Below, piece after piece: positions 4,994-16,092 of a stretch of 40,997 nucleotides of DNA. The stretch is taken from the IMG/VR virus record IMGVR_UViG_2571042438_000006; one strand, 5' to 3'. The notes beneath the pieces were generated by a model. It saw nothing but the letters and a program-made list of their open reading frames with translations, did no database searches and had not been told where the DNA came from. The position numbers and the translations under genes were made by a program. Positions within the stretch are counted from its first letter, which is position 1, and the number at the start of each line of letters is the position of its first letter. Source of the DNA: a virus (Duplodnaviria > Heunggongvirae > Uroviricota > Caudoviricetes).

Positions 4994-5775
4994 GCTGCCA
5001 CCTTCTGCTCAGTGGCTTTCTGTTTCAGGAAACCAAGAGCTTTCACTGCTTCGGCCTGTGTCAGTTCTGACGATGCGCGAATGTCGCGGCGAAATATCTG
5101 GGAACAGAGCGGCAATAAGTCGTCATTCCATGTTTTATCCAGGGCGATCAGCAGAGTGTTAATCTCCCGCATGGTTTCATCGTTAACCGGAGTGATGTCG
5201 CGTTCCGGCTGACGTTCTGCAGTGTATGCGGTATTTTCGACAATGCGCTCGGCTTCATCCTTGTCATAGATACCAGCAAATCCGAAGGCGAGACGGGCAC
5301 ACTGAATCATGGCTTTATGCCGTAACATCCGTTTGGGATGCGACTGCCACGGCCCCGTGATTTCTCTGCCTTCGCGGGTTTTGAATGGTTCGCGGCGGCA
5401 TTCATCCATCCACTCGGTAACGCAGATCGGATGATTGCGGTCCTTGCGGTAAATCCGGCATGTGCAGGATTCATTGTCCTGCTCAAAGTCCATGCCATCA
5501 AACTGCTGGTTTTCATTGATGATACGGGGCCAGCCATCAACGCCCACCACCGGAACGATGCCGTTCTGCTTGTCAGGGAAGGCGTAAATTTCTTTCGTCC
5601 ACGGATTAAGGCCGTACTGGTTGGCGACGATCAGCAATGCGATGAACTGCGCATCGCTGGCATCACCTTTAAATGCCGTCTGGCGAAGAGTGGTGATCAG
5701 TTCCTGTGGGTCGACAGAATCCATGCCGACGCGTTCAGCCAGCTTCCCAGCCAGCGTTGCGAGTGCTGTACTCAT
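4990..5775 (-). CDS. bet: Red beta single-strand annealing protein
   Basis: 261 aa, [50 protein letters not shown]...; start overlaps the exo end (ATGA arrangement). Confidence 0.95.
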
Positions 5776-5780
5776 CCGTT

Positions 5781-6077
5781 TTATACCTCTGAATCAATAT
5801 CAACCTGGTGGTGAGCAATGGTTTCAACCATGTACCGGATGTGTTCTGCCATGCGCTCCTGAAACTCAACATCGTCATCAAACGCACGGGTAATGGCTTT
5901 TTTGCTGGCCCCGTGGCGTTGTAAATGATCGATGCAGAGTGATTCAAACAGGTGCTGGGGCAGACCTTTTTCCATGTCGTCTGCCAGTTCTGCCTCTTTC
6001 TCTTCACGGGCGAGCTGCTGGTAGTGACGCGCCCAGCTCTGAGCCTCAAGACGATCCTGAATGTAATAAGCGTTCAT
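5781..6077 (-). CDS. gam: Gam, RecBCD inhibitor (98-aa short form)
   Basis: [39 protein letters not shown]... matches lambda GamS. Confidence 0.9.
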
Positions 6078-6153
6078 GGCTGAACTCCTGAAAATGGCTG
6101 TGAAAATATCGCCCGCGAAATGCCAGGCTGATTAGGAAAACAGGAAAGGGGGG

Positions 6154-6360
6154 TTAGTGATTCAGGCCGTTACCGCGTCCGTCGAGAAAAACTTCCACGA
6201 GCAAATCACTGGTATAAGTGCGCTCGATGCCGCGATGCAGATAAAGCCGTCCGCGTAAATTAGCTGATGCAGTCCAGGTACCATCTTTGTGTTTGACCAG
6301 CATTCCTGGCATGACCGCGCCGCGATTAACGGTCTGTGTTCCGTAATGTTGATGAACCAT
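6154..6360 (-). CDS. Hypothetical small protein in the position of the lambda kil/cIII/N genes
   Basis: 68-aa ORF with GGAG 5 nt upstream of its ATG; no similarity I can recognise to N, Kil or CIII. Confidence 0.3.
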   Translation of the reverse strand: MVHQHYGTQTVNRGAVMPGMLVKHKDGTWTASANLRGRLYLHRGIERTYTSDLLVEVFLDGRGNGLNH

Positions 6361-6609
6361 AAAAACTCCGCCCGTAAGCTGGGCTGCTGAACATATAGAG
6401 ACTTCTGCGCATATTCAGGCGGTGGATGGCCGCCGGTTGTCATAACTAAGCCGCCTCGTTGAAGCGACTGAGGTATGAAATGTTGAGTTAATTTCAGCTG
6501 GTCACACCGACGTTCACGCGTCCGTTTCACCCCTCGCACTCCCCGAAGCCTGCTGAAATTCAAACTGCGGATCTAAGCGGTCATCGCAACGGTGAATCAG
6601 GTAGTTGCC

Positions 6610-6710
6610 GTATCGTTGTGTTGTTGCGATGAACTTATTTAAAACTATAGTTGTTTTATCGTCAACAACAAAAGTTGTTTTATTGGTTGTTTTAGATATA
6701 ACTGGTTGTA
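6610..6710. promoter_or_regulatory. Leftward operator/promoter region (OL/PL analogue): array of GTTGTT/AACAAC repressor half-sites
   Basis: At least six GTTGTT or AACAAC motifs, including the palindrome AACAACAAAAGTTGTT (6664-6679) and GTTGTT-8nt-AACAAC (6650-6669); the same motif recurs in the cI-cro intergenic region. Confidence 0.6.
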
Positions 6711-6815
6711 TTTAGGATGGATTTATTTTGTGACTTGAATCGCATAGCGATAACTGAAGCGAGGTTATGGTGGTTTTTTTAACGGTGTGTGTGATGAGGG
6801 GAGGGCAAAAGAAAA

Positions 6816-6842
6816 CCCGGCACGGTGACCGGGATTCTTACG
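6816..6842 (-). terminator. Rho-independent terminator downstream of the repressor gene (minus strand)
   Basis: Minus-strand sequence CCCGG-TCACCGTG-CCGGG followed by TTTTCTTTTG. Confidence 0.5.
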
Positions 6843-6954
6843 CCGTTAGGTAAAGATATTATTGCGGTGGCTTAATATTACTACCTAGAGCAAAGATAGG
6901 AATTAGTTCTTTACTGAATGAGCACAATGCCCAGTTGATAATTTTTAATTGGTA

Positions 6955-7644
6955 CTACCCATGCTTCCTATATGTCTGCGGCATGCTCCCAATAACCTTA
7001 CCGAAGATGAACACCCGGTTCATCTCGTCTTTCTCGATCGGGTCCCACGGTGAGTAGCTTTTGTTATCAGAGATGACCAGCAGCTTATCCTTCATCATTT
7101 GCAGGCGCTTTACATGGGCTGTGTCGTCGTACAGAAACGCATAGATACCATCACCGTCGAAAGATTTAACTGTGATATCAACGAACAGCAGATCACCTGG
7201 TTCGATCGTTCCTGACATGCTGTCACCACGCACGTTAATGATGCGGATATTTTCCGCCTTCCTACCATCGAACATGTGACGAGCATCGTCAAACGAGTAC
7301 TCAACCGAGCGTAGAACTTCTACAAACTCACGGTTGATGACTCCCGGCCCAGCACTGACTTCTATATCAAGAACGTCAATCTTGAAGTATTTGGAATGGC
7401 TGACAGTTGATTGTATTGGTTGCACTGTACTGTCTGACATATTTCCAACGCCAGAAGATAACCATTCTGCGCGCACACCCAAAGCGTTCGCGATCTCCAC
7501 GATTTTAGTTGTTTGATTAGCTTTCCCTGTTTCGATTTTCTGAATAGCAGCCTGGCTAACCCCGACCAAATCCCCAAGCGCCTTTTGTGTAAGGCCTCGC
7601 GCTAATCTGGCTTCTTTAAGTCTTTCTGAGAGTGTTGTTTTCAT
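6955..7644 (-). CDS. cI: CI-type prophage repressor: N-terminal XRE helix-turn-helix plus C-terminal S24 (LexA-like) autopeptidase domain
   Basis: 229 aa from MKTTLSERLKEARLARGLTQKALGDLVGVSQAAIQKIE; C-terminal GDSMSGTIEPGDLLFVD serine-peptidase motif and a downstream lysine (IFGKVIG). Confidence 0.85.
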   Translation of the reverse strand: MKTTLSERLKEARLARGLTQKALGDLVGVSQAAIQKIETGKANQTTKIVEIANALGVRAEWLSSGVGNMSDSTVQPIQSTVSHSKYFKIDVLDIEVSAGPGVINREFVEVLRSVEYSFDDARHMFDGRKAENIRIINVRGDSMSGTIEPGDLLFVDITVKSFDGDGIYAFLYDDTAHVKRLQMMKDKLLVISDNKSYSPWDPIEKDEMNRVFIFGKVIGSMPQTYRKHG

Positions 7645-7748
7645 AGTCCAAATGTACAACCAAGGTTTTATTCCATCAAACGAAAATGGTTGTTGACTAA
7701 AAACAACCATAGTTTTAATCTTGATTCAAATTAACCACGGAGGTTGTT
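7645..7748. promoter_or_regulatory. Rightward operator/promoter region (OR with PR/PRM analogue)
   Basis: Divergent cI/cro intergenic region; palindrome ATGGTTGTT-GACTAAA-AACAACCAT (7685-7709); candidate PR -35 TTGACT (7691-7696) and -10 TAATCT (7714-7719), 17-nt spacing. Confidence 0.6.
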
Positions 7749-7979
7749 ATGAACCCAGCTATCAAAACAGCGATCAATATCGTTGGTTCACAAAAGAAAC
7801 TGGGCGCTGCTTGCGAAGTTTCACAGCAGGCCGTCTATAAGTGGCTTCACAACAAAGCAAAGGTATCCCCTGAACATGTCGGCAGCATTGTTACGGCTAC
7901 TGGTGGAGTAGTGAAGGCATACCAGATTCGCCCGGATCTTCCGAAGTTGTTTCCACACACCGAAAAGAACGCAGCTTAA
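7749..7979 (+). CDS. cro: Cro-like helix-turn-helix repressor (YdaS/Cro family)
   Basis: 76 aa, divergent from the repressor gene; GGAGG ribosome-binding site; helix-turn-helix GSQKKLGAACEVSQQAVYKW. Confidence 0.8.
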   Translation: MNPAIKTAINIVGSQKKLGAACEVSQQAVYKWLHNKAKVSPEHVGSIVTATGGVVKAYQIRPDLPKLFPHTEKNAA

Positions 7980-8048
7980 ATTTCCATTTCACGCTCTTTA
8001 ACAATAAGCAATCAACTTAACAGTCAATTCAAACTAAAGGAGTCAATT

Positions 8049-8588
8049 ATGCAACCACTTCCATACCAACAGACTAGCGGATTTAGCCCGACTGCGGTGA
8101 TAAATCGTTCTCAAACAAAACAGGTGCCAGGCCACGAAAAAATCCGTGATGCCGTCCGCGCCTGGTCGGCTGTAGATAATCAGGATGTCGTTGCCACACT
8201 CATTGTGAATGAGTATCGGGAGCAGGGCGGCGGCACCATCGATTTCCCTGATGATGTCAGCCGTGCACGCCAGAAGCTGTTCCGCTTCCTCGATAACAAA
8301 TTCGATTCTGAAAAATACCGAAATAACGTGCGTGAACTGACCCCGGCAATTCTGGCGGTACTACCGCTGGAATATCGCGGTTACCTGGTTGAGCAGGATA
8401 GCTTCATGGCCAGGTTGGCTGAAATGGAAAAGGAACTCAGTGAGGCAAAACAGGCTGTCATTCTCAACGCACCACGCCACCAGAAACTGAAGGAAATTAG
8501 TGAAGGTATTGTATCGATGTTTCGTGTGGACCCAGATCTGGCTGGTCCATTGATGGCGATGGTTACTACCATGCTGGGGGCGATATGA
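8049..8588 (+). CDS. YdaT-like protein (DUF1019) in the position of lambda cII
   Basis: 179 aa; the motif NEYREQGGGTIDFP resembles the Rac YdaT EYLRQGGG core as I recall it; it follows a YdaS-like cro as in Rac. Confidence 0.55.
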   Translation: MQPLPYQQTSGFSPTAVINRSQTKQVPGHEKIRDAVRAWSAVDNQDVVATLIVNEYREQGGGTIDFPDDVSRARQKLFRFLDNKFDSEKYRNNVRELTPAILAVLPLEYRGYLVEQDSFMARLAEMEKELSEAKQAVILNAPRHQKLKEISEGIVSMFRVDPDLAGPLMAMVTTMLGAI

Positions 8589-8674
8589 CAGGTTCAGAAA
8601 TGGCGAAAGCCGGTCTGCTGGAACAGAACCGACTTTCAGGTGCAAATCGTAACACACTCATTGCGGGAGGAATT

Positions 8675-9604
8675 ATGGCAAACACTGCTGAGATATTCAA
8701 TTTTCCAGTGCCGGATGCGGCACAAAAGGAGCCGCGCGTGGCAGATCTCGATGATGGTTATACGCGCATTGCAAATGAGTTGCTGGAAGCTGTGATGCTG
8801 GCCGGATTAACACAGCACCAGCTTCTGGTCTTCCTGGCTGTCATGCGCAAAACATATGGCTTTAATAAAAAACTGGATTGGGTGAGCAACGAGCAACTGT
8901 CCGGATTGACCGGGATATTACCGCACAAGTGTTCTGCTGCAAAAAGTGTTCTGGTAAAGCGTGGGATTTTGATTCAGAGCGGGCGGAATATCGGTATTAA
9001 TAATGTGGTCAGTGAATGGTCAACATTACCCGAATCAGGTAAGAAAAATAAAGTTTACCTGAAAGAGGTAAATTTACCTGAATCAGGTAAGAAAAGTTTA
9101 CCCAAATCAGGTAAAGGCGTTTACCCGAATCAGGTAAACACAAAAGACAAACTAACAAAAGACAATATAAAACCTTTTTCGTCCGAGAATTCTGGCGAAT
9201 CCTCTGACCAACCAGAAAACGATCTTCCTGTGGTGAAACCAGATGCTGCAATTCAGAGCGGCAGCAAGTGGGGGACAGCAGAAGACCTGACCGCCGCAGA
9301 GTGGATGTTTGACATGGTGAAGACCATCGCACCATCAGCCAGAAAACCGAATTTTGCAGGGTGGGCTAACGATATCCGCCTGATGCGTGAACGTGACGGA
9401 CGTAACCACCGCGACATGTGCGTGCTTTTCCGCTGGGCATGCCAGGACAACTTCTGGTCCGGTAACGTGCTAAGTCCGGCCAAACTCCGCGACAAGTGGA
9501 CCCAACTCGAAATCAACCGTAACAAGCAACAGGCAGGCATGATAGCCAGCAAACCAAAACTCGACCTGACAAACACTGACTGGATTTACGGGGTGGATTT
9601 ATGA
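8675..9604 (+). CDS. O: Replication initiator O (lambda O-like; origin embedded in the gene)
   Basis: MANTAEIFNFP...VADLDDGYTRIANELLEA...LRKTYGFNK parallels lambda O; GGGAGG ribosome-binding site before the ATG at 8675. The ORF track begins at an upstream ATG (8585) that I consider unlikely to be used. Confidence 0.85.
   Translation: MANTAEIFNFPVPDAAQKEPRVADLDDGYTRIANELLEAVMLAGLTQHQLLVFLAVMRKTYGFNKKLDWVSNEQLSGLTGILPHKCSAAKSVLVKRGILIQSGRNIGINNVVSEWSTLPESGKKNKVYLKEVNLPESGKKSLPKSGKGVYPNQVNTKDKLTKDNIKPFSSENSGESSDQPENDLPVVKPDAAIQSGSKWGTAEDLTAAEWMFDMVKTIAPSARKPNFAGWANDIRLMRERDGRNHRDMCVLFRWACQDNFWSGNVLSPAKLRDKWTQLEINRNKQQAGMIASKPKLDLTNTDWIYGVDL
9026..9180 (+). repeat. Replication origin: four about 18-bp iterons (TTACCYRAATCAGGTAAR) followed by an A/T-rich stretch
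   Basis: Iterons at about 9026-9043, 9074-9091, 9098-9115 and 9121-9138, then AT-rich CACAAAAGACAAACTAACAAAAGACAATATAAAACCTTTTT: the classic lambda ori architecture inside O. Confidence 0.85.
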
Positions 9605-10601: not shown

Positions 10602-10668
10602 TGAAACAGGTGAGTTGAGTTCAAACTGTAGTACAATTCTCTCCAGTTTGAACAGGAAAGAATATTCT

Positions 10669-11001
10669 ATGAACCCTTATATTTATCTTGGTGGTGCAAT
10701 ACTTGCAGAGGTCATTGGTACAACCTTAATGAAGTTTTCAGAAGGTTTTACACGGTTATGGCCATCTGTTGGTACAATTATTTGTTATTGTGCATCATTC
10801 TGGTTATTAGCTCAGACGCTGGCTTATATTCCTACAGGGATTGCTTATGCTATCTGGTCAGGAGTCGGTATTGTCCTGATTAGCTTACTGTCATGGGGAC
10901 TTTTCGGCCAACGGCTGGACCTGCCAGCCATTATAGGCATGATGTTGATTTGTGCCGGTGTGTTGGTTATTAATTTATTGTCACGAAGCACACCACATTA
11001 A
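10669..11001 (+). CDS. emrE: Small multidrug resistance efflux transporter EmrE
   Basis: 110 aa from MNPYIYLGGAILAEVIGTTLMKFSEGFTRLWPSVGTIICY; four transmembrane helices with the conserved Glu14. Confidence 0.9.
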   Translation: MNPYIYLGGAILAEVIGTTLMKFSEGFTRLWPSVGTIICYCASFWLLAQTLAYIPTGIAYAIWSGVGIVLISLLSWGLFGQRLDLPAIIGMMLICAGVLVINLLSRSTPH

Positions 11002-11257: not shown

Positions 11258-12784
11258 ATGAAAAAAGCCATAGCATATATGCGATTTTCATCACCAGGTC
11301 AGATGTCTGGCGACTCATTAAACCGACAGAGAAGACTTATTGCTGAATGGTTAAAGGTAAATAGTGATTATTATCTTGATACCATAACATATGAAGATTT
11401 AGGATTAAGTGCATTCAAAGGAAAGCATGCACAATCAGGAGCTTTTTCGGAATTTTTAGATGCTATAGAGCATGGTTATATATTGCCAGGAACTACATTG
11501 TTAGTTGAAAGTCTGGACAGACTTTCAAGAGAAAAAGTCGGTGAAGCGATTGAACGTCTGAAATTGATTTTGAATCACGGTATTGATGTTATAACTCTTT
11601 GCGACAATACAGTCTATAATATTGACTCTTTGAATGAGCCATATTCATTAATAAAAGCCATACTTATAGCACAAAGGGCAAATGAAGAAAGCGAGATAAA
11701 GTCAAGTCGGGTTAAATTATCATGGAAGAAAAAACGGCAGGATGCACTGGAATCAGGTACGATTATGACGGCGTCTTGTCCGAGATGGCTCTCCTTAGAT
11801 GACAAAAGAACGGCTTTTGTTCCAGACCCCGACAGGGTGAAAACTATTGAGCTAATTTTTAAACTCAGGATGGAAAGGCGCTCATTGAATGCAATAGCCA
11901 AGTATTTAAATGATCATGCTGTAAAGAATTTCTCAGGAAAAGAAAGTGCATGGGGACCTTCTGTAATTGAAAAATTATTAGCGAATAAAGCTCTGATAGG
12001 TATATGCGTACCTTCATATCGTGCAAGAGGTAAAGGAATAAGTGAAATCGCTGGCTATTATCCCAGAGTCATATCAGATGATTTGTTTTACGCTGTACAG
12101 GAAATTCGGTTGGCACCTTTTGGTATTAGCAATAGTAGCAAAAATCCTATGTTGATAAATCTACTTCGAACAGTTATGAAGTGCGAGGCTTGTGGTAATA
12201 CCATGATTGTTCATGCGGTATCTGGAAGTTTGCATGGCTATTATGTTTGTCCGATGAGAAGACTGCATCGATGTGACAGGCCATCAATAAAGAGAGATTT
12301 GGTTGATTATAATATCATTAATGAGTTGCTTTTTAATTGTAGTAAAATCCAACCAGTTGAAAACAAGAAAGATGCTAATGAAACTTTAGAGTTGAAAATT
12401 ATTGAGCTCCAGATGAAAATTAATAATTTAATTGCTGCATTATCTGTTGCGCCTGAAGTTACCGCTATAGCAGAAAAAATCAGAGTATTAGATAAGGAAT
12501 TACGAAGGGCTTCTGTATCATTAAAAACTTTGAAGAGTAAAGCGGTGAGTTCACTTGGTGATTTTCATGCTATTGACTTAACCAGTAAAAATGGGCGAGA
12601 GCTATGTCGTACACTTGCCTATAAAACATTCGAAAAAATCATAATCAATACAGATAATAAAACCTGTGATATCTATTTTATGAATGGCATTGTTTTTAAA
12701 CACTATCCTTTAATGAAAACAATATCCGCCCAGCAGGCGATAAGTACTCTCAAATATATGGTTGATGGTGAGGTTTATTTTTGA
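11258..12784 (+). CDS. ybcK: Large serine recombinase (resolvase/invertase catalytic domain, recombinase domain, zinc ribbon, coiled coil); YbcK-like
   Basis: 508 aa; N-terminal AIAYMRFSSPGQ...SLNRQ with the catalytic Ser motif; Cys-rich CEACGN...YYVCPMRRLHRCD zinc ribbon; AT-rich cargo. Confidence 0.85.
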   Translation: MKKAIAYMRFSSPGQMSGDSLNRQRRLIAEWLKVNSDYYLDTITYEDLGLSAFKGKHAQSGAFSEFLDAIEHGYILPGTTLLVESLDRLSREKVGEAIERLKLILNHGIDVITLCDNTVYNIDSLNEPYSLIKAILIAQRANEESEIKSSRVKLSWKKKRQDALESGTIMTASCPRWLSLDDKRTAFVPDPDRVKTIELIFKLRMERRSLNAIAKYLNDHAVKNFSGKESAWGPSVIEKLLANKALIGICVPSYRARGKGISEIAGYYPRVISDDLFYAVQEIRLAPFGISNSSKNPMLINLLRTVMKCEACGNTMIVHAVSGSLHGYYVCPMRRLHRCDRPSIKRDLVDYNIINELLFNCSKIQPVENKKDANETLELKIIELQMKINNLIAALSVAPEVTAIAEKIRVLDKELRRASVSLKTLKSKAVSSLGDFHAIDLTSKNGRELCRTLAYKTFEKIIINTDNKTCDIYFMNGIVFKHYPLMKTISAQQAISTLKYMVDGEVYF

Positions 12785-15629: not shown

Positions 15630-15714
15630 AGTCAGAGATAACAATCAACTAATACTGTTTCGTTGATTTTTGCTTGTAATTGGCGTTCTGGTCTGATTTT
15701 TGTGGAGTAAGTTG

Positions 15715-16092
15715 ATGCGTGATATTCAGATGGTTCTTGAGCGTTGGGGAGCGTGGGCGGCTAATAATCATGAAGATGTGACCTGGTCGTCCATTGCCGC
15801 CGGTTTTAAGGGATTAATTACTTCAAAAGTAAAATCTCGCCCACAATGTTGTGACGATGACGCGATGATCATTTGCGGGTGCATGGCCCGTCTGAAAAAG
15901 AACAACAGCGATTTGCATGATTTATTGGTGGACTATTATGTCGGCGGCATGACTTTTATGGCGCTTGCACGTAAGCATGGGCGATCTGATTGTTGGGTTG
16001 GCAGGATGCTTCAGAAAGCTGAGGGCGTAGTGGAGGGTATGCTGATGGTGTTGGATCTCCGATTGGAGATGGATGCTGATTGTTCGAAATAA
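15715..16092 (+). CDS. quuD: Late-gene antiterminator Q (phage 21/82-type, QuuD-like)
   Basis: [34 protein letters not shown]...[16 protein letters not shown] Cys-rich zinc-binding region; last gene of the nin operon. Confidence 0.85.

Follow-up and report, generated by a model that had tools for sequence, protein, structure and literature searches.

Lambdoid phages control their early genes by N-dependent antitermination, the textbook mechanism. To our knowledge, the put RNA of HK022 is the one characterised exception; it acts via the beta-prime zinc-binding domain of RNA polymerase and brings about terminator read-through in cis. Another N-less lambdoid phage, LLS, was described in 2025, with put only speculated (PMC12315714). 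Here we analysed the early-left operon of a DLP12-type lambdoid prophage contained in a 40,997-nt stretch of DNA (IMG/VR record IMGVR_UViG_2571042438_000006; 'the window' below always means this whole stretch). The N gene is absent from this prophage, no put was detected in its early region, and the RNA leader that follows the early-left promoter PL is non-coding though under purifying selection. We propose, with a probability of about 0.5, that an N-independent, terminator-less early-left operon with a protective leader is combined here with a right side that relies on boxA only.

An early-left operon without N

The window shares with the N-nut phages lambda, P22 and phi21 the order of repressor, PL and then kil-gam-bet-exo, as well as a boxA just after cro, at the site of lambda nutR. 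In contrast to lambda, it is without N, its PL leader contains neither boxA nor boxB, and the boxA of the early-right promoter PR is not followed by a boxB. A preliminary description of this DNA had placed about 880 nt between gam and the repressor stop and had recognised no N between PL and gam, and both statements hold. Open reading frame (ORF) coordinates give 877 nt from the gam start (6077) to the repressor stop (6955), and profile searches against PHROGs and Pfam matched none of the ORFs and stop-to-stop six-frame pieces of this gap to an N family. The other small early genes of the window likewise gave no N-family match. The Prokaryotic Genome Annotation Pipeline (PGAP) left the interval from repressor to kil without a gene, both in strain FDAARGOS_497, whose locus is identical, and in the O157:H7 locus. 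When a nutL was looked for on the minus strand of 6078-6700, no boxA was found at up to two mismatches, and the leader hairpins adjoin no boxA. The whole N/nutL/tL1 module is missing.

This arrangement is widespread. The entire 877 nt are 99.5% identical in phage Turner and 98.7% identical in PhiR34_1, and the leader and kil recur at 91-97% in IdasGreatGrand, several PhiR phages, 4A7, Lambda_4C10, 1W, 3W, D2 and Perceval (genus Bievrevirus); an N gene is annotated in none of these phages. A 280-nt leader sequence was found in 2209 of 5426 complete E. coli genomes (41%). Loss of N altogether, one of the options considered earlier, is supported in the form of a stable N-less design, present both in isolated phages and in this large share of genomes.

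The first gene of the operon was identified as kil. Its 68-aa product, wrongly said before to resemble none of the lambda proteins encoded between PL and gam, matched phrog_294 ('Kil protein for bacterial septation inhibition') with an E value of 2.1e-37, residues 1-68 falling on profile positions 13-80 of 83. By its sequence, the ORF is a full-length Kil of the cell-division (FtsZ) inhibitor family. The PGAP name of its O157 orthologue is 'phage encoded cell division inhibitor protein', and Kil is annotated at the same position in phi80, HK639, HK225, 4A7, CobraSix and KO-TP1. As with Rac KilR, phi80 Kil and lambda Kil, this phrog_294 member is encoded just upstream of gam. Unlike lambda kil, which is preceded by N, cIII and other genes, it stands first in the PL operon, directly behind the leader.

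The PL leader and its two halves

The promoter scan did not list PL, which was below its threshold; we assigned it by reading the sequence (Table 1). It parallels PR (TTGACT, 17 nt, TAATCT at 7693-7721) and is embedded in operator-like AACAAC/GTTGTT palindromes (about 6640-6715) that recur at OR (7686-7710). The predicted transcription start lies near 6630, and the leader from there to 6361 (about 270 nt) is untranslated and followed by kil.

Across 78 loci, nucleotide diversity in the leader was 0.022, about 3.5 times below that of neighbouring fourfold-degenerate sites. In the same loci, these sites in kil, gam and bet gave 0.071-0.080, and first and second codon positions 0.003-0.013. Because its relatives carry frameshifting indels and a common nonsense variant, the leader is non-coding, and it is under purifying selection. 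In phages with 4A7-type immunity, similarity to the window sets in about 3 nt or less from the predicted start of the transcript; since the similarity spans differing immunity regions, the transcribed leader travels as a unit. No second leader copy was found in the window by blastn-short or nhmmer. A search of the leader core against one genome per species (GTDB) returned two chance matches, in Streptomyces and in an Acidobacteriota metagenome-assembled genome, and no enterobacterial one, so that no divergent homologues were available for covariation analysis. An Rfam scan of 5700-8700 at E values up to 10 gave only chance miRNA-type matches. One variant of the leader, of O157:H7 type, has its first 44 nt replaced and has lost the 5' arm of hairpin H1 directly after a 4A7-type PL (locus L091, 3440-3520, E. 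coli O157:H7 Z852; also loci L056 and L059); this prophage also has a frameshifted ydaS/cro.

The promoter-proximal half of the leader is family-specific. Smith-Waterman comparison with the leaders of phi80, KO-TP1, HK225, HK639, CobraSix and HK022 gave scores within the shuffle range, and no exact 21-mer match was found in any enterobacterial species representative. A resemblance of the leader start to phi80 and HK639 seen by eye (CAUCG.AAC..ACA.CGAUA) was dropped on the same comparison. The half contains the perfect 10-bp inverted repeat already noticed at the start of the leftward transcript (6581-6590 and 6623-6632), of which about 0.04 would be expected by chance in a region of this size (a rough estimate). 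It spans the predicted PL start and, with +1 near 6630, 8 of its 10 bp would be present in the RNA, as H1. A second, longer repeat, missed earlier, lies at 6490-6501 and 6549-6560 (12 nt, 92%). Among the stem variants of H1-H3 in relatives, wobble preserves the pairing in 12 types, and it is disrupted in 6 types, all of them rare. The sequences of the leader family are too similar for true compensatory changes in H1-H3, and none was found; the folding energy of the whole leader is unexceptional (z -0.9). The predicted H1-H3 folds are plausible.

The promoter-distal half is an RNA module with a much wider distribution. It consists of the hairpins H4 and H5, the motif GCGCAGAAGUCU and the small hairpin H6, and is homologous in phi80, HK225, HK639, CobraSix, S9-5, KO-TP1 and ENT1. 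H4 shows covariation: five pairs are changed on both sides, and 94% of cells are paired, against 31-52% when the alignment is slid, with none of 500 shuffles as good. Since the AUG at the base of H4 opens no conserved reading frame, H4 is an RNA element and not part of a peptide.

In all seven relatives, the module lies directly 3' of an intrinsic terminator (a GC hairpin and T6), annotated as tL1A in phi80 and as 'terminator' in HK639, and their homology to the window starts exactly past the T run of this terminator. The tL1 hairpin and U tract expected before H4-H5 are absent from the window, where ...CUCAACAUUU stands before CAUACC, and no terminator was predicted in 6361-6640. H5 is a second annotated terminator in HK639 thanks to a U tract, which the window also lacks. 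The early-left regions of phi80, HK225 and KO-TP1 thus resemble the window in having the H4-H5-GCGCAGAAGUCU module upstream of genes leading to a kil of the same family; unlike it, they have a nutL with boxA, a long leader, N or another first gene, and tL1A directly before the module. The window has 150 nt of orphan sequence in place of nutL, the first gene and tL1A.

The H4-H5-GCGCAGAAGUCU module occurs 3' of tL1 in lambdoid phages of E. coli, Klebsiella, Enterobacter and Salmonella, together with N, with put or with neither, and is not in Rfam. H4-H5 lies at 6418-6477 (minus strand) in the window and, in the fetched loci, at L007:2503-2565, L010:3004-3066, L094:4371-4432, L095:2503-2562, L099:1504-1566 and L100:1512-1574. 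A reading of GGCGGCUUAGUU in H4 as an ops/RfaH-like element was rejected by eye; an insertion of 2 nt sets it apart from the ops consensus, and it is not conserved in phi80.

The junction of module and kil varies. About 95% of relatives read GGGCAGGAG at 6369/6370; the window and Turner, with GGGC-GGAG, are one A shorter. In relatives that have this A, an AUG at 6443 (MTTGGHPPP...) shares the frame of kil and would give a long Kil of 96 aa; depending on the phage, gene callers have annotated kil as 68, 93, 96, 128 or 139 aa. Of the polymorphisms within the 84-nt extension, two common ones are synonymous in the long frame; seven variants in all are too few to decide. We also rejected the idea that an upstream ORF at the base of H4 encodes a conserved peptide, MTTGGHPPP: in CobraSix the hairpin is read in a different frame, and there is a frameshift in the window and in Turner.

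Early transcription without N: boxA and competing explanations

On the right side, CGCTCTTTA at 7992-8000, 13 nt past the cro stop, extends to CGCTCTTTAACAA (7992-8004), and the boxA consensus GCUCUUUAACAA is matched exactly at 7993-8003. No other zero-mismatch GCTCTTTAACA exists in the 41 kb of the window. When up to two mismatches are allowed, the number of matches is eleven, which equals the chance expectation, so only the exact one counts. It occupies the position of lambda nutR/tR1, and each of the 32 fetched loci in which it occurs has it conserved directly behind cro. The surrounding 71 nt, including 45 nt 3' of boxA, are unstructured (-3.6 kcal/mol, z -0.7) and, as they do not fold, there is no boxB after cro. 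The boxA-like site without a boxB hairpin that the preliminary description had reported is therefore stronger than it had appeared. The window boxA is the full rrn-type consensus, whereas that of lambda is the shorter CGCUCUUA. No strong intrinsic terminator was predicted between PR and Q; a strong tR'-like one follows Q.

In rrn operons and other boxA leaders, boxA by itself is enough for NusB/NusE and the Nus complex to be loaded and for Rho to be blocked (PMC5725501). With rrn operons, the suhB leader and Salmonella CRISPR arrays, the right side of the window shares an exact boxA, an untranslated stretch resembling a Rho-utilisation (rut) site, a position at the head of a long operon and the lack of a phage protein partner. 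We know of no phage early operon for which boxA-only antitermination by Nus factors has been shown. As a separate observation, the end of cro and the boxA spacer (7936-8090) contain 22-27% C and 9-12% G in 78-nt windows, a composition typical of Rho loading sites.

We infer the following roles for the leader and for boxA. The nutL and N, or the putL and its genes, together with the tL1 hairpin, are replaced here by the 150-nt family-specific sequence. PL would fire directly into an untranslated leader with kil as the first gene. Early-left transcription would then reach kil-gam-bet-exo without a phage antiterminator; none would be needed, because the terminators that N or put would overcome are not there. 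From PL to exo, only a weak intrinsic terminator was predicted. Rho and 5'-end-dependent decay would normally act on an untranslated leader of 270 nt. Here, the stem at +1 would make the mRNA more stable, and the G-rich, densely paired body of the leader (37% G from +40 to +100) would offer Rho no loading site. The module beside kil probably sets the translation of kil, a toxic protein. The lone boxA after cro would recruit host NusB/NusE and other Nus factors and would resist Rho without N, as in rrn operons.

Several points weigh against this proposal. Two better intrinsic terminators lie further down, at 4252-4230 and 3656-3638 on the minus strand, after exo and before a DksA-like gene, xis and int, and lambda needs N for read-through to genes such as xis and int. 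The terminator predictions cover the intrinsic type, and Rho-dependent terminators are beyond their reach. The constraint on the 150-nt part shows a specific function, for which stability and Rho shielding are a generic guess; nor do the unexceptional folding energy of the leader and the lack of compensatory changes in H1-H3 speak for it. Phages with 4A7-type immunity that carry the window-type leader have no boxA after cro and show a hairpin there instead, so boxA is no general solution for the leader family. Beside this, the 4A7-type cro-cII hairpin (GCCGC-CUAAUCU-GCGGC; loci L008, 238-267, L009 and L091) is nearly identical to the tL1A of phi80, CobraSix and KO-TP1 (GCCGC-CUAACCA-GCGGC) without its U tract.

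In an unlikely but live rival, H1-H3 (6478-6630) would be a new cis-acting RNA for processive antitermination, put-like in action and unrelated to put in sequence. Such an RNA would fold on leaving the polymerase, stay bound to it and carry it past the two downstream terminators and Rho sites to xis and int. The rival is a live one because the family-specific half is constrained, sits directly after PL, where nutL (phi80) and putL (HK639) sit, and begins at the predicted +1, and because those two terminators exist further down the operon. The module-like start of homology, about 3 nt from the transcript start across differing immunity regions, also favours it, as do the purifying selection with mostly wobble-compatible stem substitutions, the viability of phages without N, and HK639, which likewise has put on the left only. 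On the other side, the put model found no match and the window contains no second copy; H1-H3 show no compensatory covariation, and the folding energy is not exceptional; the O157:H7-type variant has lost the 5' arm of H1 (though its cro is frameshifted); and the nearest terminators to be served are lost, not kept. We consider it rather improbable that the leader (6478-6630) founds a new class of nascent-RNA antiterminators, which prophages in about 40% of E. coli genomes would then carry. As a second possibility, the boxA after cro would mark the use of the host rrn-type Nus complex by a phage for its early-right operon without N.

A protein antiterminator hidden in the leader is very improbable. 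It would be a minimal N-like RNA-binding peptide, starting at the TTG at 6563, with at least 31 aa (MNFSRLRGVRGVKRTRERRCDQLKxTQHFIP) kept in most relatives. Its KRTRERR may resemble the arginine-rich motifs of lambda and P22 N, its Arg-rich N-terminus had raised the idea of an atypical N, and its first 31 codons are open in most of 83 related loci (annotated phages, IMG/VR and E. coli genomes) in which the frame of the Arg-rich segment was followed. One weak match, to the unannotated family phrog_25330, was found (E 0.027). Against this, the frame is not kept: it is fused in frame to kil in 49 loci, ended by TAG at 31 aa in 25, shifted by a 5-nt insertion in 4 and put out of frame with kil by a 1-nt deletion in 3, including the window and Turner, while the TTG itself is lost in 2. 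Product lengths of 31, 40, 133 and 136 aa result, with no conserved C-terminus. The TTG has no Shine-Dalgarno sequence, and the ORF has neither an N-family match nor a PGAP call. The CG-rich palindrome of H3 accounts for the Arg codons, and its nucleotides are invariant even at third codon positions. A 31-aa peptide would be without the NusA- and RNA polymerase-binding parts of N, and neither operon has a boxB-type hairpin beside a boxA. We rejected the ORF as a gene, and the suggestion of an atypical N found no support.

Hardly any chance is left for the leader to be a diverged member of the HK022 put family. Its position directly downstream of PL and the absence of N recall the put phages HK022, HK75 and HK639, N-less lambdoid phages with a structured RNA at or near the PL transcript start; HK639, CobraSix and S9-5 also have the downstream H4-H5 module and kil in common with the window. 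We built a covariance model, R1, from six putL sequences (HK022, HK639, phiEt88, CobraSix, S9-5 and UPF_BP1), with the structure taken from the cryo-EM study of putL (PMC9378689). R1 recovered putR elements outside its training set in HK022 (44.1 bits), UPF_BP1 (43.3) and phiEt88 (42.3). With filters off, it found nothing above 0.8 bits on the PL leader strand, and the early region of the window was likewise empty. It was also negative on 4A7, Perceval, PhiR47_2, the O157 locus, phi80, HK225, KO-TP1 and ENT1. Searches with putL by blastn found put in eight kinds of phage, none with a window-type leader. A put-like RNA as in HK022, raised in the preliminary description, is in this sense not what the leader contains: it differs from the put phages in sequence and structure, and the terminators that put overrides in HK639 are absent here or without a U tract. 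Rfam found no put in HK022 or HK639 either; as it holds no put family, its silence is uninformative. Resemblances to put seen by eye (AACGG...GUCGG in H3 to stem I; GAUACGGCAA in the H1 loop to the loop of stem II) gave Smith-Waterman scores within the shuffle range and were dropped. By R1, putR is present in HK022, phiEt88 and UPF_BP1 (loci L005, L093 and L096), and HK639, CobraSix and S9-5 (L006, L094 and L095) have only the left-operon copy within the fetched parts.

That the leftward operon is silent and the region a decaying remnant of an N deletion, as had been considered, is scarcely credible: the prophage does carry cargo and insertions (emrE, a serine recombinase) and the 1-nt deletion shared with Turner is rare among relatives, but none of kil, gam, bet and exo is damaged, the region recurs in identical or nearly identical form in phages that were recovered as plaque formers or were induced and then propagated on laboratory strains, and the constraint on a non-coding leader, with its diversity so far below that of neighbouring synonymous sites, rules out decay.

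Neither N nor put is thus found in a very common group of E. coli phages and prophages, to which belong the genus Bievrevirus, DLP12-type prophages at argU and the prophages in the 41% of complete genomes given above. Where N or put would stand, this group has a non-coding leader under constraint, joined to an RNA module that also occurs in phages of N type and of put type. Should the leader or the lone boxA act as an antitermination signal, E. coli RNA polymerase would be modified in a new way; if not, the operon would be a natural lambdoid example in which terminators and antiterminator have both been removed. The N-less, terminator-less reading bears on the timing of kil, recombination and excision genes in common gut prophages. 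In the searchable literature, we found no description of a window-type leader or of a boxA-only phage early operon, and nothing relevant on Bievrevirus, GevA/GevT, prophage small RNAs upstream of kil or N-less lambdoid phages, save the LLS paper.

Feature coordinates and neighbouring genes

Table 1. Features of the immunity and early-left region, in positions of the window
Feature	Position	Strand	Description	Basis
gam	5781..6077	-	98 aa, short Gam form	Pfam PF06064 Gam, E 3.7e-65; phrog_259
Weak terminator-like hairpin	6111..6128	-	between kil and gam; 5-bp stem, 8-nt loop, poor T run	consensus scan only
kil	6154..6360	-	68 aa, Rac/phi80 Kil family, first gene of PL operon; Shine-Dalgarno GGAG 6369-6366	phrog_294
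TTG ORF	6162..6563	-	133 aa, Arg-rich N-terminus, judged spurious	profile searches, 83-locus comparison
Promoter-distal leader half	6361..6477	-	conserved RNA module: H4, H5, GCGCAGAAGUCU, H6	homology to seven phages
H6	6384-6370	-	small hairpin just before kil Shine-Dalgarno	
H5	6434-6418	-	GC hairpin, GGCGG-CCAUCCA-CCGCC	
H4	6477-6441	-	15-pair hairpin, encloses GAGG, ends at AUG	
Promoter-proximal leader half	6478..6630	-	family-specific: H1, H2, H3	folding, repeat search, relatives' variants
H3	6531-6500	-	G-rich hairpin	predicted fold
H2	6560-6552 with 6498-6490	-	long-range stem	predicted fold
H1	6630-6623 with 6590-6583	-	8 bp in RNA, 10 bp in DNA; C-rich 32-nt loop; begins at predicted +1	
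PL	6637..6665	-	-35 TTGACG 6665-6660, 17-nt spacer, -10 TTAAAT 6642-6637	read from sequence
Intrinsic terminator	6806..6833	-	ends repressor transcript; CCCGGTCACCGTGCCGGG + TTTTCTTTTG	predicted; conserved in 4A7
cI-type repressor	6955..7644	-	229 aa from ATG at 7644 (mechanical ORF to 7710)	Peptidase_S24 + HTH_3
cro-like regulator	7749..7979	+	YdaS family	PF15943, E 4e-17; phrog_35
boxA	7992..8004	+	consensus CGCUCUUUAACAA in unstructured C-rich, G-poor cro-cII spacer, no boxB	motif scan, folding
cII-position gene	8049..8588	+	YdaT family	PF06254, E 8.5e-30; phrog_163

The prophage adjoins tRNA-Arg(UCU) (1580-1656) and lies at argU, beside fimZ and a transposase fragment (4-240; region 1-1670). 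Leftward from the immunity region lie gam, bet, exo, small early-left genes and int (1672-2835). Rightward, the cI-type repressor is followed by a YdaS-type cro, a YdaT-type gene, O, P, ren, emrE and other cargo, nin genes and a Q-type late antiterminator (15700-16092). PGAP calls the repressor of the identical FDAARGOS_497 locus at 690 nt.

As in the DLP12 of E. coli K-12, emrE (10615-11001) and a 508-aa serine recombinase (11258-12784) are inserted between ren and the nin genes. Unlike K-12 DLP12, the prophage has a complete immunity and recombination region. Of the two terminators after exo, that at 3656-3638 looks good as an intrinsic terminator, with an 8-bp stem and a TTTTATTGTT tail.

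About 75 nt 3' of the repressor (6840-6913) match the 3' end of a gene annotated as GevA antitoxin in PhiR47_2 and as an ASCH-domain protein in 4A7. A two-gene cargo at the rex position seems to have been lost from the window; in relatives, this position is occupied by GevA/GevT, by a SIR2-family protein (O157:H7) or by other genes.

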